Source: an uncultured Bacilli bacterium
Lineage (GTDB): Bacteria; Bacillota_I; Bacilli_A; RF39; UBA660
DNA length: 64,000 nucleotides
Direction: 5' to 3'
Assembly: GCA_934096945.1 (NCBI GenBank)
Contig: CAKOND010000002.1
Coordinates: forward strand, 45,975-109,974
The translations under genes and the position numbers were made by a program. Under the pieces are notes generated by a model, which did no database searches, was not told where the DNA came from, and saw nothing but the letters and a program-made list of their open reading frames with translations. Positions 10,554 through 54,376 of this stretch are shown piece after piece (within the stretch, counting starts at the first letter, position 1; each line of letters begins with the position of its first letter).

Positions 10554-10599
10554 AAATACTAGCATTAATAAATAATTTGTGGTATATTAGTTTTGTAAA

Positions 10600-10797
10600 A
10601 ACGAAGAAAAAGGATAAGTAATTATTGATATTATGTAGAGAGCTCTTGGGTGGTGAAAAAGAGTTAGTGGAAATAATGAAATCTACCTTTGGAGTTGGGC
10701 ATTTGTCTCGGTTAAAAAACCGTTATTAAAATAGAGTTAAATAAAGAATGGCACCGTCAGAAAAATGACTTCTTTTGGGCTATTCTTTTTGTTTTGG
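10600..10797 (+). promoter_or_regulatory. T-box leader, serine specifier (UCU)
   Basis: Stem I AGAGAG...GGTGGTGAAA; candidate specifier TCT-A at 10682. The T-box core AATGGCACCG has UGGC matching discriminator G. A terminator stem aaagaatggc/gctattcttt plus T-run sits just before serS. Confidence 0.7.
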
Positions 10798-10807
10798 AGG
10801 GAAAAAT

Positions 10808-12097
10808 ATGATAGATATTAAATTAATAAGGGAAAATAGGGATTTGGTTAAGGAAAATATTAAGAAAAAATTTCAAGATGAAAAACTTGGACTTGTTGAT
10901 GAAGTTTACGAGTATGATAAGACATATCGTGAATGTAAGATGAAAGTTGATGAACTTAGAAGTAAAAGAAATGATTTAAGTGCATCAATTGGGAGTCTTA
11001 TGCGTGAAGGCAAAAAAGATGAAGCAGAAAAAATTAAGCTAGAAGTTGGAAACATCAATAATGAAATAGCTGAATATGAAGAAAAAGAAGAAAAGTTAGA
11101 AAAAGAAATTAGAGATAGAATGCTGGTTATTCCAAATATAATTGATGCCAGTGTGCCAATTGGAAAAGATGATAGTGAAAATGTTGAAGTTGAAAAATTT
11201 GGTGAACCAATTGTGCCAGATTATGAGATTCCTTATCATGCTGATATAATAGCTAGTGTAAATGGAATGGATAAAGAAGCTGCTGGAAGAACAAGTGGGG
11301 AAGGATTTTACTATTTAATGGGAGATATTGCTAGACTTCATGAAGCAATGCTTGCTTATGCTCGTGATTACATGATTAAAAAAGGTTTTACTTATTGTGT
11401 GCCACCATTTATGATACATGGCAGTGTCGTTACTGGTGTTATGTCATTTCCGGAAATGGAAGCTATGATGTATAAAATTGAAGGTGAGGATTTATATCTT
11501 ATTGGTACAAGCGAACATTCAATGATTGGTAAGTTCCAAGGTCAAATGCTAAAAAAAAGTGATTTACCTATCAAAATGACTTCTTATTCACCATGCTTTA
11601 GAAAAGAAGGGGGCTCTCATGGTCTTGAAGAACGTGGGCTTTATCGTGTACACCAATTTGAAAAACAAGAAATGATAGTTTTATGCGAACCAGAAGAAGC
11701 AATGGATTGGTATAATAAGATGTGGAAATATACTGTAGAAATATTTAGAAATATGGATATACCTGTTAGACAACTTGAATGTTGTAGTGGTGATTTAGCG
11801 GATTTGAAAGTTAAATCTTGCGACATTGAAGCTTGGAGCCCTAGACAACAAAAATACTTTGAGGTTGGTTCTTGTTCTAACTTGGGTGATGCACAAGCAA
11901 GAAGATTGGGTATTAGAGTTAAAGGAGAAAAAGGAAATTACTACTTAAATTCTTTGAATAATACTTGTGTTGCAACTCCGAGAGGGCTTATTGCATTAAT
12001 AGAAAATAATTATCAAAAAGATGGAAGTATAAAAGTTCCAGAAGTTTTACAACCTTATATGGGTGGTTTGGAAGTTATTGTTTCACAAAAAAAATAA
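10808..12097 (+). CDS. serS: serine--tRNA ligase
   Basis: MIDIKLIREN start after GGAGGG. N-terminal coiled-coil arm and class II motifs (RVHQFEK, GSCSN). Confidence 0.9.
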   Translation: MIDIKLIRENRDLVKENIKKKFQDEKLGLVDEVYEYDKTYRECKMKVDELRSKRNDLSASIGSLMREGKKDEAEKIKLEVGNINNEIAEYEEKEEKLEKEIRDRMLVIPNIIDASVPIGKDDSENVEVEKFGEPIVPDYEIPYHADIIASVNGMDKEAAGRTSGEGFYYLMGDIARLHEAMLAYARDYMIKKGFTYCVPPFMIHGSVVTGVMSFPEMEAMMYKIEGEDLYLIGTSEHSMIGKFQGQMLKKSDLPIKMTSYSPCFRKEGGSHGLEERGLYRVHQFEKQEMIVLCEPEEAMDWYNKMWKYTVEIFRNMDIPVRQLECCSGDLADLKVKSCDIEAWSPRQQKYFEVGSCSNLGDAQARRLGIRVKGEKGNYYLNSLNNTCVATPRGLIALIENNYQKDGSIKVPEVLQPYMGGLEVIVSQKK

Positions 12098-14691: not shown

Positions 14692-14775
14692 TGGTGGGGA
14701 GACATAGATTTGAACTATGGAACCCGAAGGAACAGATTTACAGTCTGCCGCGTTTGACCACTTCGCTATCTCCCC
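14692..14775 (-). tRNA. tRNA-Tyr(GUA)
   Basis: Anticodon loop CTGTAAA, long variable arm, CCA encoded. Confidence 0.9.
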
Positions 14776-14782
14776 AAAAAAA

Positions 14783-15099
14783 TGGTGCCGACAGAGAGAG
14801 TCGAACTCCCAACCTACTGATTCATACTACTATAGTTTTCACTACCACATATGTGTTTGTAGTCTGGACTTTCTCTTAACCATATTCGTTAAAGAACTTA
14901 GGCTCATCGTATAAAGTCTCTACACTTGGTTATACAACCTAGCTCGGGATTGTCATATAATAATATTTATTATGAAGAGTTCCCCGAATTAGCGATGTCC
15001 ACCTTAATTGTTTCCAACTAAGGGTGCAAGATAGTTCAAAAAAGTATATATTACTTCTATCCCACAAGTCAGTTGCGCTGCCAGTTACGCTATGTCGGC
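14783..15099 (-). tRNA. tRNA-Thr(UGU) interrupted by a group I intron after anticodon position 36
   Basis: The 5' exon is 15064..15099 (GCCGACATAGCGTAACTGGCAGCGCAACTGACTTGT) and the 3' exon is 14783..14822 (AATCAGTAGGTTGGGAGTTCGACTCTCTCTGTCGGCACCA). Joined, they give a 76-nt cloverleaf closely resembling Firmicute tRNA-Thr(UGU). Confidence 0.85.
14823..15063 (-). ncRNA. group I intron (241 nt, IC3-like, no ORF)
   Basis: The 5' exon ends in U, paired as a U-G wobble to an internal guide GCA. Helices: P2 CCUUAGUUG-GAAA-CAAUUAAGG, P3 CAUCG/CGAUG, P4 UCGGG/CCCGA, P6 GGUU-GUAU-AACC, P7 GACUUU/AAAGUC. The GUGUAGAGACU element resembles the Azoarcus tRNA-Ile intron. The intron ends in G. Confidence 0.8.
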
Positions 15100-15114
15100 A
15101 AAATATAAATAAAA

Positions 15115-15191
15115 TGGTGGGCGCTATAGGACTCGAACCTATGACATCCTGCTTGTAAGGCAGACACTCTAACCAACTGAGTTAAGCGCCC
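15115..15191 (-). tRNA. tRNA-Val(UAC)
   Basis: Anticodon loop CTTACAA; CCA encoded. Confidence 0.9.
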
Positions 15192-15351
15192 ATGTCTCGA
15201 TGACAATTAAGATTATACCAGAAGGCAGACGCAAATGCAAGTAATTTTTACAAATTTTATCTATTTTTTTAATAATTCTTATTATATTGGCATATTTTAA
15301 ATAATTTTTTTGTAAATTATTCGTAATCTTATGTATTTTTTTTGTATATTT

Positions 15352-16044: not shown

Positions 16045-16857
16045 ATGAAGCCAAAAATAGAAGAAAATGTAAAAAAATTATTGATTGAGTTTTATTTAAT
16101 CCAATGTAAAGGTTGGGTAAAGAGCCAAGGAAAAGGTACAAGTGCTGCTGGAACAACACTAGAGTACCTACTAGGTAAGAAGGAGGATGCAAAATCTTTA
16201 CCAGACTATTACGGAATTGAGTTAAAAACTAAACTCGCTACAAGCACATATCCAATTAGGCTATTTAGTGCTGTTCTTGATAACAGACCTAATGTGATGA
16301 ATGAGCTTTATGAAAAGTGTTCTTGGAAAAGAACTCGTAACGAAGGTGAAAGAGAATTATATGACTTTATTAATGCCACAAAATTTTCTAATACCCATCG
16401 AAAGTATGCTTTTAAATTGAATGTTGATCGCAAGAAAAAACGCGTTGATCTTCTTTTATACAATAATTGGGATAAAAAAATGGTAAATAACAATATGTCT
16501 TGGTCATTTGATGAACTTGAATTAAGGTTAACAACCAAGTTATCATGTCTAGCAATTATTCATGCGTGGAAAAAAACTTTAAAATCTACAAATTCTGAAT
16601 ATTTTAAATATACCAATATGAATTTGTATTATTTAAAATCTTTCAAAAATTTTATTGATTTACTGGAAAACGGAAAAATTGGAGTGGATCTTAAAATGTA
16701 TCCGTATTATACTGGAGAAAACCGAGGCAAACTTCGTAACCGCGAAACAACATTTGTCATAAGTGAAGAAGACATTCCATTATTATTTGATAAAATAGAT
16801 TTAAAAGTAAATGATATTGTAAAGGAAACTCCTAAAGAAGAAAATAAACAAATTTAA
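16045..16857 (+). CDS. MvaI/BcnI-family (MutH/Sau3AI-like) type II restriction endonuclease, solitary
   Basis: GTSAAGTTLEYLLGKKED..LPDYYGIELKT and C-terminal GKIGVDLKMY...RGKLRNRETTFVI parallel the BcnI motifs GQILE..GDLGEFELKG and VLVMDLC...GPHDRGPHLRI. Confidence 0.75.
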   Translation: MKPKIEENVKKLLIEFYLIQCKGWVKSQGKGTSAAGTTLEYLLGKKEDAKSLPDYYGIELKTKLATSTYPIRLFSAVLDNRPNVMNELYEKCSWKRTRNEGERELYDFINATKFSNTHRKYAFKLNVDRKKKRVDLLLYNNWDKKMVNNNMSWSFDELELRLTTKLSCLAIIHAWKKTLKSTNSEYFKYTNMNLYYLKSFKNFIDLLENGKIGVDLKMYPYYTGENRGKLRNRETTFVISEEDIPLLFDKIDLKVNDIVKETPKEENKQI

Positions 16858-18852: not shown

Positions 18853-18894
18853 TGTAAAAAATGTATAATAATTAACACTTTTAGGGGGATGTTT

Positions 18895-20025
18895 ATGCAA
18901 AAAAGAAATTATTTGGAATTACCTAAAGAAAATGGACCAAGATTTTATTATAGAAGTGAACCACTTCAAAAATCTAAAGATGAACTTGAAGAATTTTTAG
19001 AATGGGATAAAAGTATGAATAATTTAGCTTTTGCTAGAAAAATGATGTATTCACATGAACTTAAAGCTAATAATTTAGTTGAAGGTTATGGTGATGATTT
19101 AGAATTAATCGAATCCGTTATTAAAAGAAAAGTTGATACTATTAAAGATATTGAAATTAAACAAAGAATTTTAAATCTTTATCATGGATATTATTATATT
19201 TTACATCATCGAAAAATGGATGCTGAACATCTTCATGAGTTATATCAAATTTTAAGCGAAAATCTTTTATGTGAATATGATAGAGAAAATATGGGACCTT
19301 TATATAGGGAAAGGGCAGTTTATATACTTCAAAATGGTCGTTTAGATTTAGATTTATCTGAAGGTGTATCGTTTAGTGCTATAAATGAGCTTATGTTTCA
19401 TTATTTTGCTTTTGTTAATAAAACCAGCAATTTATCACAAATAGATGAGTATATTAAATCACAAATTATGCATTTTTATTTTGTTTATATTCATCCTTAT
19501 TTTGATGTTAATGGTAGAACAAGTAGAACTATGGCTATGTGGTATTTACTAAAAAAACAAGCTTATCCTTATATAATATTTAATCGTGGCATTAGTTTTA
19601 AAGGTTCTAAATATGATAAAATTATTAAAGATGCTAAAGAAAAATGTGATATTACATATTTTTTAGAAATGATGCTTGATACGTTAAAACTAGAACTAGA
19701 AAAAGAACATATTATGCAAGATATTGCTTCATCAAGTGGATGTAAATTAAATGGAATGGATTTTCAAACTCTTCATTATTTTTTAACAATGAATGGCGCC
19801 AAAACTCTTGCGGATTTTGGAGTTATTTATAATAGATTTAATGATAAAAAGACTACAAATGAAATATACGCGGAAATGATTGAACCTCTTATAGATATGG
19901 AAATTTTTAAGGTTATAAGACAAACTAAAAGAGTAATAGGAAATATTTCAAATGTTGAACTTGAACTTAATCCTACTTTTTTTGAAAATAATGAAAAGTA
20001 TTTATCTAGGATAAAATTAAAATGA
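18895..20025 (+). CDS. Fic/DOC-family protein with non-canonical active-site motif
   Basis: HPYFDVNGRTSR stands in place of HPFx(D/E)GNGRxxR. Confidence 0.75.
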   Translation: MQKRNYLELPKENGPRFYYRSEPLQKSKDELEEFLEWDKSMNNLAFARKMMYSHELKANNLVEGYGDDLELIESVIKRKVDTIKDIEIKQRILNLYHGYYYILHHRKMDAEHLHELYQILSENLLCEYDRENMGPLYRERAVYILQNGRLDLDLSEGVSFSAINELMFHYFAFVNKTSNLSQIDEYIKSQIMHFYFVYIHPYFDVNGRTSRTMAMWYLLKKQAYPYIIFNRGISFKGSKYDKIIKDAKEKCDITYFLEMMLDTLKLELEKEHIMQDIASSSGCKLNGMDFQTLHYFLTMNGAKTLADFGVIYNRFNDKKTTNEIYAEMIEPLIDMEIFKVIRQTKRVIGNISNVELELNPTFFENNEKYLSRIKLK

Positions 20026-24478: not shown

Positions 24479-24724
24479 ATGCATATTAAAGATACCCTTA
24501 TTAATTTTTTATATGATAAAGATTATTTTATATCCATATATGATACATATATTCATGTTTTTAATTGTAAAGATTTAGTTAGTTTAACTAGTAAACTAAT
24601 TGTTTTAAAAATGGAAAAGTTTAGTTTAGAAATAAAAGGTGAAGATTTGTTTATAACTAAGATGATGCCAAATGAAATTCTTATTAAAGGTAGAATAAAG
24701 AATGTAGGTATTACTTATGAATAA
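24479..24724 (+). CDS. yqfC: sporulation protein YqfC
   Basis: YqfC-like sequence in the position ahead of yqfD. ATG 24479 follows AAGGTGA. Confidence 0.8.
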   Translation: MHIKDTLINFLYDKDYFISIYDTYIHVFNCKDLVSLTSKLIVLKMEKFSLEIKGEDLFITKMMPNEILIKGRIKNVGITYE

Positions 24725-25859
24725 AAATATTGTGTGGATAAGTAGTAAATGTGATAATTATTATAGATTGATCAGAAAAATAGAAGAATTATCAATAAAA
24801 ATATATGAAGTTAAATACATAGAAAAGGTTCTTTATTTAAAGGTTACAAAAAAAGATTATGAAAAGATAAGTAAGTATATTATTAGTTATAAATTTAAGA
24901 TTGTAAGAAATACTGGAATAAATAAATTAATTGAAAATATAAAGCAAGAAAAAATATTTGTAATAAGCTTAGCGGTGGGATTACTAGTTTTTCTTTGTTT
25001 AGAAAATTTAATTGTTAAAATAAATATTGTTCATGAAAATAGTAATATTCGGGAGCTTATTAAAGATGAACTTGATAGTTATGGAATAAAGGTTTTAAGT
25101 TTTAAGAAAAGTTATAAAAAACTTGAAGCAATAAAGCAAAATATCCTTGATAAATACCCTGATAAACTTGATTGGATTGAGTTTGAAGTTAAGGGAATGG
25201 TTTTAAGTGTTAAAATAGAAGAAAGAATTATTACTGATACTAATAAAGTTGATAAAGTCTGTGATGTTGTTGCTAAAAAAAGTGGAGTTATTAGTGATAT
25301 TAAGGTAGAAAACGGTGATGTTTTAGTTTTAATAAATGATTATGTAAAGGATGGCGATACCTTAATTAGTGGAGTAGTTAAATATAATGAAGAGGATAAA
25401 AGATATACTTGTGCAGCTGGTGAAGTTTATGCTACGACTTGGTATACAGGTAGTGCAAGTATTCCTTTTAAGTATGATGAATATGAAAAAGAGAAGAAAA
25501 AAAGATATAATTTAGTCTGGGAATATGATGGAACGAAACATGAAATATTTAAAAATAGATTAGATAGTTTTGAAAGTAATTATAAAACTTTACTTAAAGT
25601 GTTTGATTTTGGTTTATATCTTGATAAGCAAGTAAGTGTCAAAAAAATAGAGAAGGAATATAGCGAAGAAGAAGCTTTAAATGTTGGCATAGAAAAGGTA
25701 ATTCAAACTGTAGAAAAAAAATTAACTAAAAAAGATACCATAATTGATAAAAAAGTTTTGAAAAAAGTTAAAAATAATAGTACAATGGATATAGAGGTAT
25801 TTGTGGTTGTTAAAGAACTTATAAGTACTCAAAAAGAAATAGTGATTGAAAAGGATTGA
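24717..25859 (+). CDS. yqfD: sporulation protein YqfD
   Basis: Size, single central TM segment and position match YqfD. Confidence 0.8.
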   Translation: MNKNIVWISSKCDNYYRLIRKIEELSIKIYEVKYIEKVLYLKVTKKDYEKISKYIISYKFKIVRNTGINKLIENIKQEKIFVISLAVGLLVFLCLENLIVKINIVHENSNIRELIKDELDSYGIKVLSFKKSYKKLEAIKQNILDKYPDKLDWIEFEVKGMVLSVKIEERIITDTNKVDKVCDVVAKKSGVISDIKVENGDVLVLINDYVKDGDTLISGVVKYNEEDKRYTCAAGEVYATTWYTGSASIPFKYDEYEKEKKKRYNLVWEYDGTKHEIFKNRLDSFESNYKTLLKVFDFGLYLDKQVSVKKIEKEYSEEEALNVGIEKVIQTVEKKLTKKDTIIDKKVLKKVKNNSTMDIEVFVVVKELISTQKEIVIEKD

Positions 25860-39300: not shown

Positions 39301-39425
39301 AAAAACGTTCCTAAGAACAAATAGATTATATCAAAAACTTATTCATAATGCAAGGATTTTGAGAAAAATAATTGTTAATATTGAATAAAAATGTTATACT
39401 TAGTAAAAGAATAGGAATGGTTGTT

Positions 39426-41153
39426 ATGTTTGGTAAGATTAAAAAAATAGATAATAATGAAGTTACAATTGAAAATATATCTGGTAAAGCCATATCTAGT
39501 TTAATGAACTGTCATGTGATATTTTTAGAAAATAATCGAAAAATAGTGGGTGAAATAATTTATATTGATGAAATAGAGGCTAAAATTCTTTTAGTAGGTG
39601 AAATAATTGATAATAAGTTTCATGCTGGAATTATAAAGAAACCTAGTGGTATATCTGAGGTTAGAGTTATTACAAAAGATGAGCTTGAACTTATTATTGG
39701 AAGTAGCATTATTTTGAAGGAAAATTTATTACTGGGCTCTTCAGCAATATATAAAAACTTTAATGTGTCTGTATCCCTTAACGATATATTTGCAAATCAT
39801 TTAGCAGTAATAGGAAATACTGGTTCTGGGAAGTCTTGTGGGGTTGCTAGAATGCTTCAAAATTTATTTTTTATAAATAAACCAATTAATTCTCATATAG
39901 TTTTATTTGATGCTTATGGTGAATATGTTGATACTTTTAAAACTATAAATGATATGAATTTAAAATTTGTAAGTTATTCGGGAAATTCAAAAAATGAGAA
40001 AGAACTTCAACTTAAGTTTCCTGCTTGGTTTTTAGATGTTGATGATTTAGCTTTGCTTCTTTCCGTTACAAGTTCTGATCAATTACCTGTTCTCAAGAAA
40101 ACATTAAAGTTAGTTAAAATTTTTAAGGGTAATAGTCCAGAGATGAAAAAATATAAAAATGATATTATAGCTAAGTGTTTAATGGATGTTTTAACAAGTG
40201 GAAGACCATCAACGACGATGCGTGACCAAATAATTGCGGTTTTATCACATTATAATACTGATGATTTAAATTTAGAGTCAATTATACATCAACCTGGATA
40301 TGATAGAACTTTTAGACAATGTCTTTTAATTGATGACTCAGGAAAAATGAATGCTATTTATGAAGTTATGAATTTTTTGCAACAATTTGAACATATAGAT
40401 TTGGAAAGTATAGATATTGTTGATGCTATGTGTTATTCTTTGGAAGATTTGTATAATGCCTTGGAATTTTCTTTGATAAGTGAAGGAACTATAAATAATG
40501 ATGCTATTTATAAAGAAATGAATATTTTAAAAGTTAGACTTCAAAATATTATAAATAGTAATAATAAATATATATTTAATTTGGATGAATATATTGGTAA
40601 AGAAGAATTTGTAAGAAATATGTTTGTTAAAAATAATCTAGTTAATATTGATTTAAGTGATGTAGATGATGAATTTGCTAAAGTATTAACTAAAATATAT
40701 AGTAAACTTTTATTTAATTATACAACTTCATTAGATAAAAGAGGCAGTTTGTCATTTAATATTATTTTGGAAGAAGCCCATAGATATGTTCAAAATGATA
40801 ATGATATAAATGTAATTGGTTATAACATATTTGATAGAATTACTAAAGAAGGAAGAAAGTATGGAACACTTCTTACATTTATTACGCAAAGACCTAGTGA
40901 ACTATCTACGACTGCTTTAAGTCAATGTGCTAATTTTATTGTTTTTAGGGTATTTCATCCAGCAGACTTAGAGATTGTTAGAACAATGAGCACTAATGTA
41001 TCAAAGGCTAATATTGAGCAAATTAAATCATTATCACCTGGTTCTGCTTATGCTTTTGGTGTAGGCTTTAAAATACCAACATTAGTTAATTTTGAAATGC
41101 CAAATCCTGTTCCTGAGAGTACAAGTGTTAATGTTAAAAATATTTGGTTTTAA
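39426..41153 (+). CDS. HerA-like (DUF87) P-loop ATPase
   Basis: N-terminal barrel-like region, Walker A GNTGSGKS, IILEEAHRY, FITQRPSEL. Confidence 0.75.
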   Translation: MFGKIKKIDNNEVTIENISGKAISSLMNCHVIFLENNRKIVGEIIYIDEIEAKILLVGEIIDNKFHAGIIKKPSGISEVRVITKDELELIIGSSIILKENLLLGSSAIYKNFNVSVSLNDIFANHLAVIGNTGSGKSCGVARMLQNLFFINKPINSHIVLFDAYGEYVDTFKTINDMNLKFVSYSGNSKNEKELQLKFPAWFLDVDDLALLLSVTSSDQLPVLKKTLKLVKIFKGNSPEMKKYKNDIIAKCLMDVLTSGRPSTTMRDQIIAVLSHYNTDDLNLESIIHQPGYDRTFRQCLLIDDSGKMNAIYEVMNFLQQFEHIDLESIDIVDAMCYSLEDLYNALEFSLISEGTINNDAIYKEMNILKVRLQNIINSNNKYIFNLDEYIGKEEFVRNMFVKNNLVNIDLSDVDDEFAKVLTKIYSKLLFNYTTSLDKRGSLSFNIILEEAHRYVQNDNDINVIGYNIFDRITKEGRKYGTLLTFITQRPSELSTTALSQCANFIVFRVFHPADLEIVRTMSTNVSKANIEQIKSLSPGSAYAFGVGFKIPTLVNFEMPNPVPESTSVNVKNIWF

Positions 41154-45421: not shown

Positions 45422-47662
45422 TTATTCTTGGACATTATTTTTCTCTAACTTTACTAAAACTTCACGTGGTTTAGAACCATTTTGAGGTCCTACTATACCG
45501 CGTGCTTCAAGTAAATCCATCATTCTAGCTGCTCTGTTATAACCAAATCTAAATCTTCTTTGGATGAGGGAGGCACTAATTTTTCCAGTTTGAATAGCAA
45601 ATTCAACAACATCATTATATGCATCATCATCTTCACCCCCAACAGCTGAGGAACCTGATCCACTTGATGTATTTTGACTAACATTTTCAAAACTTTGATC
45701 ATATTTAACTACTGCTTGATTTTTACAAAAATCAATTAATCTTTTTATTTCGTCATCGTTTACAAAGCTACCTTGGATTCTTGTTGGTGCTGATTCACCC
45801 ATTGGAAAATATAACATGTCACCTTTACCGAGTAATCTTTCGGCACCTCTTTGGTCAAGGATTGTACGAGAGTCAATTTGTGATGCAACTGCAAAAGCAA
45901 TACGAGATGGAATATTATTTTTAATTAAACCTGTAATAACATCTGTTGATGGTCTTTGGGTTGCAACTATAAGATGAATTCCAGCTGCACGAGCAAGTTG
46001 AGTAATACGTGTAATTGAATCTTCAACTTCTTTAGATGCAACAAGCATTAAATCTGCAAGTTCATCAATTATAACAACTATATAAGGCATTCTATTTTGT
46101 GGACTTTCTGGATGTTTTTTATTATATTTATCAATCATTTCATTATATCCAGTTATGTTTTTAACTTCCTTATCACTAAATGTTTGAAATCTTCGATCCA
46201 TTTCTGTTACTACTCTTTGAAGGGTTAAACTTGCTTTTTTGGGATCGCTCACAACTGGGCAAAGTAGGTGAGGAATACCATTATAATTTGTAAGTTCAAC
46301 TTTTTTAGGGTCTACAAGAACGAGTTTTACTTCAGTTGGTTTATAACGCATTAATATCGATGCAATAATTCCATTGATACATACAGATTTACCTGAACCA
46401 GTTGAACCTGCAACTAAAAGGTGAGGCATCTTTGTTAAGTCAAATACTTTTGGTGTACCCATAATATCTTTTCCTAATGCTGCACATATTTTTGCATCAC
46501 TTTTTAAATTTTGTGGACTTTCAAGGACTTCTCTTAAAGTTACACTTGAAATTGTAGGGTTTGGTATTTCAATACCTATTGTACTTTTGCCTGGAATAGG
46601 TGCTTGAATAATGACATCTTTGGCAGCAAGTGCTAAAGCTATTTCTTTATCAATACTTAATATTCTATTAACTTTGGTTGCTGGTGGAACAGTGAGTTCA
46701 TATTCTGTAACTGCTGGTCCAATATGAATTTCTACAACTTTGGCAGCAATACCGAAATCTCTTAAAACTCTTTCTAGTATTTCTTTGTTACTTTGTGTAA
46801 ATGTTGTACTATTTACTTTTTTAGGTTTAGGTTTATCAAATATTTCGTCAAATTTTGGTAAGCGATAATATTCTTCTTCATCAGATGTAATTTCTTCTTT
46901 AGTTTCAGTTTTTTCTAAGGATTCTTGTGTAATTGGTTTATTTTTTAATTCTTCCATACTTGTTATAATTATCTTTTCTTTTTCAAGTGGTTTTACTTCA
47001 GGTGTTTCTTTTATTTCATCACTTGTTGTAATAGGAATATCTTCTTCACTAGTTGTATCCGTTTTTTCTTTTTTCTTTCTTTTAAATATGCTAAATATTT
47101 TAGCAAAAATATTTGATAGATTAAAATTAAATGTTAATACAGATGCAAATATACCGAGTAAAACTAAAATAACAATAGTACCGGTTTTTCCAAATAATCC
47201 ATAAAGTAGAGCCGTAAATAGAGCTCCGATAAAACCACCACCAATAACTACAGTTGTAACACCTGATGTATTTAAAGCATTAGATGCATTTATCGATGAT
47301 ATTCTTTCCATAAAATTATTATACGTCTCCATAATAATTTCTTTTGGATTTTGGGTTATAGATAAAAATTCAAAATGGCTTGCAACTAAAAGAATAATGA
47401 AAAAAATGTATAATCCTATTAGTTTGGGACTGCTAAATTTTGGCATTTTTCTTTTATAAAGCATGTAAACGCCAAGAACTATTAAGGATGTTAAAATAAT
47501 TATCCACCATGTGCCAGCTAAAAATATTGCAAACATTTTAAGTAGGGAACCAATAAATCCAAAGCCAAAACCAATTATACCTATAAGCACAAGGATAAGG
47601 CCAGTTAGTTCAACATTATAACTACTGTTATTATTTTCTTTAGTTTTTTTCTTCTTTGCCAT
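45422..47662 (-). CDS. ftsK: DNA translocase FtsK/SpoIIIE
   Basis: N-terminal TM segments, GSTGSGKS, and a gamma-domain wHTH at the C-terminus. Start at MAKKKK after AAGGTGA. Confidence 0.95.
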   Translation of the reverse strand: MAKKKKTKENNNSSYNVELTGLILVLIGIIGFGFGFIGSLLKMFAIFLAGTWWIIILTSLIVLGVYMLYKRKMPKFSSPKLIGLYIFFIILLVASHFEFLSITQNPKEIIMETYNNFMERISSINASNALNTSGVTTVVIGGGFIGALFTALLYGLFGKTGTIVILVLLGIFASVLTFNFNLSNIFAKIFSIFKRKKKEKTDTTSEEDIPITTSDEIKETPEVKPLEKEKIIITSMEELKNKPITQESLEKTETKEEITSDEEEYYRLPKFDEIFDKPKPKKVNSTTFTQSNKEILERVLRDFGIAAKVVEIHIGPAVTEYELTVPPATKVNRILSIDKEIALALAAKDVIIQAPIPGKSTIGIEIPNPTISSVTLREVLESPQNLKSDAKICAALGKDIMGTPKVFDLTKMPHLLVAGSTGSGKSVCINGIIASILMRYKPTEVKLVLVDPKKVELTNYNGIPHLLCPVVSDPKKASLTLQRVVTEMDRRFQTFSDKEVKNITGYNEMIDKYNKKHPESPQNRMPYIVVIIDELADLMLVASKEVEDSITRITQLARAAGIHLIVATQRPSTDVITGLIKNNIPSRIAFAVASQIDSRTILDQRGAERLLGKGDMLYFPMGESAPTRIQGSFVNDDEIKRLIDFCKNQAVVKYDQSFENVSQNTSSGSGSSAVGGEDDDAYNDVVEFAIQTGKISASLIQRRFRFGYNRAARMMDLLEARGIVGPQNGSKPREVLVKLEKNNVQE

Positions 47663-47758
47663 TTTTATCACCTTAATTAATTATACCTTAATTTATAAAA
47701 ATATTCAAATGATTTTTTGAAAAATTGGCCATAATAAAAAGCCATAACGGCTTTTAAA

Positions 47759-52971: not shown

Positions 52972-53409
52972 ATGAATAAAGAGGATTATAAGTTGCTTGT
53001 AAAAAAGCATGCTCCGAGGGAACCTAAATTAAGAAATTTTGGAGTGGCTTTTTTAGTGGGAGGATTAATTGGCCTTTTAGCAGAAGTAGTATCCATGATT
53101 TTGAAAAATTGTTTTGCTTTTTCAAGTGTAGAGGCAGGACTTATTGTGGCTCTCATCGTTATTGGTGTTGCATCACTTTTTACAGCTTTAGGCTTTTTTG
53201 ATAGCTGGGTAAGTAAATGTAAATGTGGTTTAATAATACCTACGACAGGTTTTGCTCATAGTGTTTCATCAAGTGCTCTTGAGTATAAAAGAGATGGTCT
53301 TATTACTGGTCTTGGTTCAAACTTTTTTAAACTTGCTGGTTCAGTAATTTTATATGGTATTATTTCAGCATTTCTTCTTGTGATTGTGAGGTTGGTTATA
53401 GGTGGCTAG
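52972..53409 (+). CDS. spoVAC: stage V sporulation protein AC
   Basis: Typical SpoVAC membrane protein sequence and gene order. Confidence 0.9.
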   Translation: MNKEDYKLLVKKHAPREPKLRNFGVAFLVGGLIGLLAEVVSMILKNCFAFSSVEAGLIVALIVIGVASLFTALGFFDSWVSKCKCGLIIPTTGFAHSVSSSALEYKRDGLITGLGSNFFKLAGSVILYGIISAFLLVIVRLVIGG

Positions 53410-54376
53410 TTTTAAATTTAAAAATGTTTATTTAAATGATTATTATACTGTAGTTGGACCACTTGAAAAAAATAGTCATTTAAGAAGGCTTGATTTAGTT
53501 ATGGATGATTATTATATTGGTGAAAAAACTTTTGAACAGGCAGAAGTTAAGATGCAACAACTTGTAATTGATAATTTAATTGGTAAAAATAATTTAGCAA
53601 TAAGTGATATTGATTTACTTGTGGGTGGTGATTTAACTAACCAGATTGCTATTAGTAATAATAGTGCTAAAAATTATAATATTCCATTTTTAGGTCTTTA
53701 TTCTGCTTGCGCAACATTTGCTGAAAGTTTGATTGTTGCATCTTGTATGATTGATAGTGGTAAACTAAAAAAAGCAATTAGTATTACAAGTAGTCATAAT
53801 TTAACTGCAGAAAGACAGTTTAGATATCCAGTTGAATATGGAGCTCCGAAACCACATACTGCAACATTTACAACAACTGGGGCAGTATCAACTCTTTTAA
53901 GTAAAAATTATAGTAAAATAAAACTTGAGAGTGCCACGATTGGGGTGCCTGTTGATTTAGGTGTGCTTGATGCTAATAATATGGGAGCAGCTATGGCACC
54001 TGCAGCAGCTTCAACTATTGCATCACACTTAGCTGCACTTAAAAGAGATGCAAATTATTATGATTTGATTTTAACTGGTGATTTAGGTTGTGTTGGGAGT
54101 GAAATACTTAAAGATTATTTAGAAACAGTCTATAATATAAAATTAAAAAAATATTTAGATGCTGGCTGTGAACTATACTTAGATAGTCAAAAAACGTATG
54201 CTGGGGGTAGTGGACCAGCTTGTTTACCTATAGTTTTATTTAATAAAATATTACTTAATAAAAAATATAAAAAAATATTAATAGTTGCAACTGGAGCTTT
54301 ACATAGTCCAACAACTGTTAATCAACATGGAACAATTCCTTCGATTGCTCATGCAGTAAGTTTGGAGGTGGAATAA
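53402..54376 (+). CDS. spoVAD: stage V sporulation protein AD
   Basis: Thiolase-like SpoVAD sequence; GTG start. Confidence 0.9.
   Translation: MASFKFKNVYLNDYYTVVGPLEKNSHLRRLDLVMDDYYIGEKTFEQAEVKMQQLVIDNLIGKNNLAISDIDLLVGGDLTNQIAISNNSAKNYNIPFLGLYSACATFAESLIVASCMIDSGKLKKAISITSSHNLTAERQFRYPVEYGAPKPHTATFTTTGAVSTLLSKNYSKIKLESATIGVPVDLGVLDANNMGAAMAPAAASTIASHLAALKRDANYYDLILTGDLGCVGSEILKDYLETVYNIKLKKYLDAGCELYLDSQKTYAGGSGPACLPIVLFNKILLNKKYKKILIVATGALHSPTTVNQHGTIPSIAHAVSLEVE

Follow-up and report, generated by a model that had tools for sequence, protein, structure and literature searches.

Reviews up to 2014 name tRNA-Leu, tRNA-fMet, tRNA-Ile and tRNA-Arg genes as the hosts of bacterial tRNA group I introns (PMC3984707). 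A later survey covered 80,413 genomes, recorded 5,292 split tRNA genes and raised the number of settings from 4 to 21 (Williams 2020, bioRxiv 10.1101/2020.01.27.920355). The seed sequences in that preprint include Rba53.Thr.5Ug (GGU anticodon), Mti5.Thr.3Ug, Pgr210.Thr.2Ug and Mba143.Tyr.4Ug; because Thr.5Ug is among them, a tRNA-Thr gene split after nucleotide 36 is a described category by the preprint's own seed. The seed of the Rfam group I family, RF00028, holds no bacterial sequences, and the survey worked with cutoffs of 18-20 bits (Williams 2020, bioRxiv 10.1101/2020.01.27.920355). tRNAscan-SE 2.0 is, by its own statement, not designed for such genes (PMC8450103). Literature searches on group I introns of tRNA-Thr, including those of Firmicutes and Clostridia, returned nothing specific besides the Williams preprint.

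In the Azoarcus intron, an 11-nt receptor in P8 receives L2. Most plastid and cyanobacterial tRNA-Leu introns have CAG/CUG in P4.

The DNA analysed here (the window) is a 64-kb stretch from an uncultured, very AT-rich gut Firmicute; its GC content is 27.4%. It very likely carries a functional, ORF-less group I intron of the IC3 type that separates nucleotides 36 and 37 of tRNA-Thr(UGU), a gene of a Val-Thr-Tyr-Gln-Lys operon. The window copy is an ordinary member of a described class, and the interest lies in the clade which surrounds it.

The split tRNA-Thr gene

Joined, positions 15099-15064 and 14822-14783 of the minus strand form a canonical 76-nt tRNA-Thr(tgt) with a normal cloverleaf (ARAGORN on the joined exons). 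In intron mode, ARAGORN calls the split tRNA-Thr(UGU) in place as i(37,241); the exon boundaries and the 76-nt product given in the original prediction are exact. The 5' exon (15064..15099, minus strand; 36 nt, GCCGACAUAGCGUAACUGGCAGCGCAACUGACUUGU) holds the acceptor 5' strand, the D arm, the 5' strand of the anticodon stem and the loop up to U36, and ends in CUUGU. The intron occupies 14823..15063 of the same strand (241 nt, 35% GC). The 3' exon (14783..14822, minus strand; 40 nt, AAUCAGUAGGUUGGGAGUUCGACUCUCUCUGUCGGCACCA) runs from A37 to an encoded CCA. The splice junctions thus read CUUGU / intron...G / AA, and the insertion point lies after the third anticodon base, which is the fifth base of the anticodon loop, as in the Thr.5Ug class. 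Intron-less alleles of the tRNA-Thr(UGU) gene would be marked by the sequence GCGCAACTGACTTGTAATCAGTAGGTTGGG.

The gene is flanked by tRNA-Val (15191-15115, minus strand) and tRNA-Tyr (14775-14692, minus strand), and the five-gene operon to which it belongs is conserved. Default ARAGORN and the Rfam tRNA model both miss it; each lists 8 tRNAs in the window. Standard tRNA finders and the Rfam gathering cutoff therefore both pass over the split gene, and the genome would seem to be without a tRNA for its commonest Thr codon. The same annotation gap applies to many MAGs of gut Clostridia and Bacilli, for Thr(UGU) as well as for Tyr(GUA).

Assignment to the group I family

A sensitive scan of 14700-15200 (501 nt) matches the full RF00028 model (1-253) at 15051-14845, with 35.3 bits and E = 2e-7. 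The gathering score of the family is 50 bits and the window intron lies below it; whole-window Rfam scans, at gathering thresholds and in sensitive mode, report no group I match, since the speed filters drop the intron. The search with this family that was proposed alongside the original prediction thus gives a significant local match which stays under the curated cutoff and is silent at the scale of the window.

An independent covariance model was built from the P3-to-end region of 14 related tRNA-Tyr introns and includes no Thr sequences. Searched against both strands of the 64 kb, it matches 14999-14823 with 118.4 bits (E = 4e-30), and the match stops precisely on the terminal G. Its sole other match in the window is noise (9.4 bits, E = 0.69). 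The RF00028 score below gathering is the one point in favour of a chance resemblance or an assembly chimera, and that explanation is effectively refuted. The identical locus, 241-nt insert included, is present in two independent ENA metagenome assemblies (ERZ28613651 and ERZ27287185), which excludes an assembly artefact; it is joined by more than 60 homologous loci and by the score of the Tyr-intron model. Both models, together with the covariation described below, uphold the view of the 241-nt insert as a group I intron, and it is highly probable that it is one of the IC3 type.

Structure of the intron

All elements are on the minus strand. P1 (15025..15066) is predicted to form between exon UGU plus intron GGGAUAG (15066-15057) and CUAUCUUGCA (15034-15025), giving 10 bp. 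U36 (15064) stands opposite G at 15027 in a U.G wobble at the 5' splice site, and the internal guide GCA covers 15027-15025; this is the wobble that had been foreseen. The exon contributes 3 bp only to P1, and P10 has at most about 2 bp by eye. P1 is extended by a hairpin, AAGUA/UACUU (15056-15042). P2 (15002..15023) has 9 bp, CCUUAGUUG-GAAA-CAAUUAAGG, and its GAAA tetraloop is L2. P3 is a 5-bp helix of CAUCG (14993..14997) with CGAUG (14905..14909).

P4 (14944..14987) pairs UCGGGG (14987-14982) with UCCCGA (14949-14944) and encloses P5 and L5 (14978-14953); P5 is short and AT-rich, and L5 has 28 nt. The region 14924..14943 holds P6 (GCU/AGU) and P6a (GGUU-GUAU-AACC). P7, the expected guanosine-binding helix, is made of G(A)GACUUU with a bulged A (14913..14920) and AAAGUCC (14866..14872), with J8/7 UAAGAG just before the second strand; it lines up with P7 in both RF00028 and the Williams seed. 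P8 (14879..14903) starts with GCC/GGU, continues with CCUAAG...UAUGG and ends in a distal UUC/GAA. A three-way junction at 14826..14863 consists of P9 (ACUAC/GUAGU), P9a (CAC/GUG) and P9b (UAGU-GAAA-ACUA). The last intron base is the terminal (omega) G at 14823, the base at which the Tyr-intron model also stops. P2, P3, P4, P7 and the final G lie where they had been placed at the outset; the helix then called P6 is P6a, and P5, P8 and P9 are added here. Folded alone, the intron has a minimum free energy structure (z = -2.74) which recovers P1, its extension, P2, P4, P5, P9, P9a and P9b.

The CCUAAG...UAUGG of P8 is the sequence of the canonical 11-nt GAAA-tetraloop receptor. By analogy with Azoarcus, this motif may serve as the receptor for L2. 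There is no ORF in the 241-nt window intron; it is thus not itself an endonuclease-bearing mobile intron.

Covariation among Thr introns

Ten Thr(UGU) introns, the window copy and nine from MAGs, were aligned with MAFFT and compared over the 70 pairs of the proposed structure. Across these pairs, 96.9% of cells are paired. Both sides have changed in 28 pairs, against 13.1 +/- 2.3 in shuffles (none of 500 reaches 28) and 2-9 in slid controls with partners moved by 1-3 columns; the ten introns are mutually related, and part of the apparent covariation is shared ancestry.

The changes are spread over the fold. P2 has changed on both sides in 7 of its 9 pairs and is still 100% paired; compensatory changes are found in 3 of 5 pairs of P3, in 4 of 7 pairs of P6/P6a, and in each of the helices P9, P9a and P9b. 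A base pair of P5 covaries, as do pairs of P8. The 10 pairs of P1 are 100% paired in the 10 sequences, with 1 compensatory change. P4 and P7 (7 pairs) are invariant across the ten introns, which is expected because they are helices of the catalytic core.

Relatives and distribution

The motifs AAUUCGGGGAA, CCCGAGC and GUAGAGACU are common to the window intron and the Williams seed sequences; a GNRA loop on P2 and a GAAA hairpin in P9 are present as well. A degenerate pattern of these core motifs (J3/4-P4, P4'-P6 and J6/7-P7) retrieves split tRNA genes in many phyla, with at least 120 loci in species-representative genomes. Most of the loci listed lie inside anticodon loops according to ARAGORN, always after a U in clean calls. 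Among the matches listed, hosts are Leu(UAA), Met/Ile(CAU), Arg(CCU), Thr(GGU), Ser and others. Leu(UAA) is the commonest (32 of 80 resolved genome loci among the matches listed), and per-tRNA host counts outside Clostridia are raw ARAGORN output which includes obvious miscalls. ARAGORN is unreliable for introns longer than 500 nt or with odd exons; a phage-like contig discussed below (L371) was called Tyr. That locus and two others, L277 and L278, were resolved by hand.

The general pattern also matches a contig of a Methanosarcinaceae MAG (JAIPUR010000020, locus L068), where no split tRNA is called; the contig may be bacterial and mis-binned. A similar archaeal case is suspected of mis-binning in the Williams preprint (Williams 2020, bioRxiv 10.1101/2020.01.27.920355).

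The closest relatives come from the gut. A tRNA-Thr(UGU) intron of 220-238 nt is present at the same site in at least 9 Clostridia/Bacilli gut MAGs (rabbit, human, chicken and others), and a sister intron splits tRNA-Tyr(GUA) as GU|A in at least 7 further MAGs. The window intron shares 74-82% identity with the Thr set, 61-69% with the Tyr set and at most 64% with all else. A clade-specific pattern (P7 through J8/7), run on a metagenome collection, retrieves many human-gut and rumen contigs. The hosts in the matches listed are at least 49 Thr(UGU), 43 Tyr(GUA), 2 Thr(CGU), 2 Leu(UAA) and 1 Lys(CUU). Thr(UGU) introns lie on about 53 metagenome contigs or more, which with the MAGs makes more than 60 further copies. 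The suggestion that a tRNA-Thr host might be new is not supported: Thr.5Ug stands in the Williams (2020) seed, and the same Thr(UGU) intron recurs at all of these loci.

Among the matches listed, the terminal G is kept in 49/49 Thr and 43/43 Tyr members. The guide tracks the host tRNA. In Thr(UGU) genes the exon ends in UUGU and the guide is UUGCAC (49/49 among the matches listed); in Tyr(GUA) genes the exon ends in CUGU and the guide is UUGCAG (43/43, again among the matches listed). Thr(CGU) combines an exon end CGU with a guide GCG, and both Leu(UAA) and Lys(CUU) combine CUU with GAG. Such matching of guide and exon is a prediction of a working P1. The pattern also shows a single ribozyme lineage to have moved between tRNA genes.

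The Tyr(GUA) sister introns (L012, L014, L040, L050, L082, L089, L124 and the 43 metagenome loci; Met-Tyr context) have a plain P8 hairpin without CCUAAG/UAUGG, and their L2 is GUGA or GCAA, not GAAA. The Thr and Tyr branches thus seem to have different braces between L2 and P8.

Probable mobility of the clade

Five Thr(UGU) introns of about 625 nt (L252, which is truncated, L254, L276, L278 and L363) carry an ORF of about 135 aa in L5; the L5 insertion in ORF-bearing relatives is about 400 nt. The ORFs tested (L278 and L276) match an HNH endonuclease (PF01844). The ribozyme parts of L254, L276, L278 and L363 are 82-84% identical to the window intron, and the 5' exon of L278 is identical to that of the window. 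The C-terminus of the HNH ORF (...YGNPEL) is encoded by the P5'/P4'/P6 part of the ribozyme core.

A human gut contig (ORSI01000414, reverse strand, about 1-850 of the reversed locus; L277) has a Val-Thr-Tyr-Gln-Lys operon in which Thr and the adjacent Tyr(GUA) are both split. The core of the Tyr intron (GU|A, 602 nt) shares 88% identity with the window Thr intron and 93% with the neighbouring Thr intron, and the Tyr intron retains the Thr-type guide GCAC. It seems to have been copied recently from Thr into the adjacent gene. Its P1 loop contains a PD-(D/E)XK ORF (PF11645, 61 bits) that also matches PDB 2OST weakly (E = 0.084). Two unrelated endonuclease families are thus found in different loops of one intron clade.

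The clade also occurs on a phage-like contig. IMGVR_UViG_3300037454_000175 (38.8 kb; L371) encodes a tail/lysin protein and a tRNA array, and the contig's own tRNA-Thr(UGU) gene contains, at the same site, an HNH-bearing intron of the clade. It was found with the clade-specific pattern; the general IC3 pattern in viral contigs gave many split tRNAs, with no Thr(UGU) among the matches listed. A 2014 review states that every phage intron then known sat in a protein gene. The general pattern gives split tRNA calls in more than 60 IMG/VR contigs, some of which may include host DNA; L370 and L373 are further examples, and a 273-kb contig (L372) has a split Leu(UAA). Two other IMG/VR loci (L374 and L375) have a clade-type core (P3-P9, ending ...GUGGUAAG) which ARAGORN places in no tRNA gene.

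As part of the same best explanation, and with the same high likelihood as the whole, the clade would spread by homing; the window copy would have lost its endonuclease gene or never had one, and would now be inherited with the tRNA gene. The clade offers a natural example of group I spread, with one core in at least 5 tRNA genes and a guide retargeted each time. As far as searches show, the abundance in gut metagenomes, the sister relation of Thr and Tyr introns and the endonuclease-bearing and phage copies are undescribed; these are features of the clade, not of the window copy.

Proposed splicing and the possible need for the tRNA

The intron would fold within the operon transcript. The anticodon UGU and the first seven intron bases would pair with CUAUCUUGCA to form P1, with U36 in the U.G wobble. 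As expected from the family, free guanosine bound in P7 would attack after U36; the terminal G (14823) would then occupy the same site, and the freed 5' exon would attack after 14823. The intact 5-bp anticodon stem would keep the exons together, and their ligation would give the mature anticodon loop CUUGUAA. The fold is probably braced by L2 GAAA with the P8 receptor motif and by L9b GAAA, in a manner resembling Azoarcus. In relatives, the guide has been retargeted to other tRNAs, and some of them have an HNH gene in L5 or a PD-(D/E)XK gene within the loop of P1.

A real group I intron may still need a protein helper in the cell, whether a host factor or a maturase. AT-rich organellar group I introns are often protein-dependent; the window intron, at 35% GC, has a P3 of 5 bp only and a P1 with 3 exon pairs only. 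Set against this, the window copy has no ORF, and the tertiary braces of the self-sufficient IC3 type (L2 GAAA with P8 CCUAAG/UAUGG, and L9b GAAA) are present. The endonucleases of its relatives are of the HNH and PD-(D/E)XK types, for which no maturase role exists to our knowledge. Dependence on a helper is accordingly judged improbable, and splicing by the intron's own fold is preferred.

In the window, threonine is most often encoded by ACA (23.9 per 1000; 47% of Thr codons), which in standard decoding is read solely by a tRNA with a UGU anticodon. No further Thr tRNA is found within the 64-kb window. Across 62 related loci (412 kb in total), an intact Thr(UGU) beside the split one is found in none. 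The codon usage and these 62 loci fit a need of the host for the spliced tRNA; were this the sole UGU gene of the genome, splicing would be essential.

If instead the intron were decaying in a tRNA pseudogene, an intact tRNA-Thr(UGU) elsewhere would do the work, and a view limited to 64 kb of the genome leaves room for such a second copy. The exons, however, fold as a perfect cloverleaf in which the CCA is encoded. The core helices do not vary, and pairing of the peripheral helices is maintained by compensatory changes in more than 10 species. The gene also lies within a conserved tRNA operon, and the related loci lack an intact copy alongside. Decay is thus very improbable, clearly more so than dependence on a helper, and a functional intron in a tRNA gene remains the favoured reading.

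A bolder extension of the functional reading makes splicing an obligatory gate for the sole ACA-reading tRNA of a spore-former with 27% GC. Levels of guanosine nucleotides, such as the drop in GTP at entry into stationary phase or sporulation, could then tune ACA decoding; in parallel, the clade could at present be moving between the tRNA genes of phage and host, and from one tRNA gene to its neighbour. Taken as a whole, this scenario is unlikely.

Other features of the window

A T-box leader at 10595-10776 (plus strand; RF00230, 77.4 bits, gathering 93, E = 4.9e-15) lies directly upstream of a seryl-tRNA synthetase ORF (10775-12097). A gene for an MvaI/BcnI-family restriction endonuclease (16045-16857, plus strand; PF15515, 117 bits) lies some 230 bp away from the final tRNA of the cluster and is followed by a gene for a Fic-domain protein (18889-20025).

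Several genes touch on the nature of the host. There is a SpoVAD-like gene (53402-54376, plus strand; 353-373 bits, just under the NCBIfam cutoffs), a YqfD-like gene (24717-25859, plus strand; 156 bits, under the cutoff), an FtsK/SpoIIIE-type translocase (45422-47671, minus strand) and a HerA-like ATPase (39372-41153, plus strand). Together they are consistent with a spore-forming Firmicute. The sporulating host assumed in the original prediction is thus plausible; of its two sporulation-type markers in the window, SpoVAD-like and YqfD-like, both score below curated cutoffs.

Comparison with known systems

The Thr.5Ug class, represented by Rba53.Thr.5Ug, is the nearest described category. As there, the window intron interrupts a tRNA-Thr after the third anticodon base, has a U before the 5' splice site and a G before the 3' splice site, and shares the IC3-type core AAUUCGGGGAA ... 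GUAGAGAC. The seed example has a GGU anticodon and a GC-rich intron, whereas the window holds the UGU isoacceptor of an AT-rich gut Firmicute; the window intron shares about 61% identity with the Thr(GGU) introns retrieved.

Cyanobacterial and plastid tRNA-Leu(UAA) introns (Leu.3Ug) have the same IC3 architecture and the same P9/P9a/P9b junction with a GAAA loop. The Leu site, however, is after U34 and the window site after U36. The Anabaena tRNA-Leu intron reportedly requires an anticodon stem bridging the exons (a result ascribed to Zaug, McEvoy and Cech, 1993), and the intact 5-bp anticodon stem which bridges the exons of the window gene matches this requirement.

The likeness to the Synechocystis tRNA-fMet intron runs through the PF11645 ORF of the Tyr intron in L277; PDB 2OST is presumably I-Ssp6803I, the PD-(D/E)XK homing endonuclease of that fMet intron. 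Unlike the Synechocystis intron, the window copy is without an ORF, and its ORF-bearing Thr relatives have HNH genes in L5.

The parallel with the Azoarcus sp. BH72 pre-tRNA-Ile(CAU) intron (IC3; Aol6.Ile2.5Ug), drawn when the locus was first described, is sustained by the shared site and core motifs. Both introns follow nucleotide 36 and have 3 exon bp in P1; both have L2 GAAA, CCUAAG...UAUGG in P8 and the same J3/4-P4 and J6/7-P7 motifs, and AAUUCGGGGAA and GUGUAGAGACU are common to the window intron and the Azoarcus Ile2.5Ug seed sequence. They differ in tRNA and phylum. The window intron also differs in its three-way P9, as in tRNA-Leu introns, in its P1 extension hairpin, in its low GC content and in P7, which reads GACUUU in the window and GACUA in Azoarcus. 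The clade provides small, AT-rich ribozymes, from gut bacteria that are mesophilic, to set beside the Azoarcus model system.
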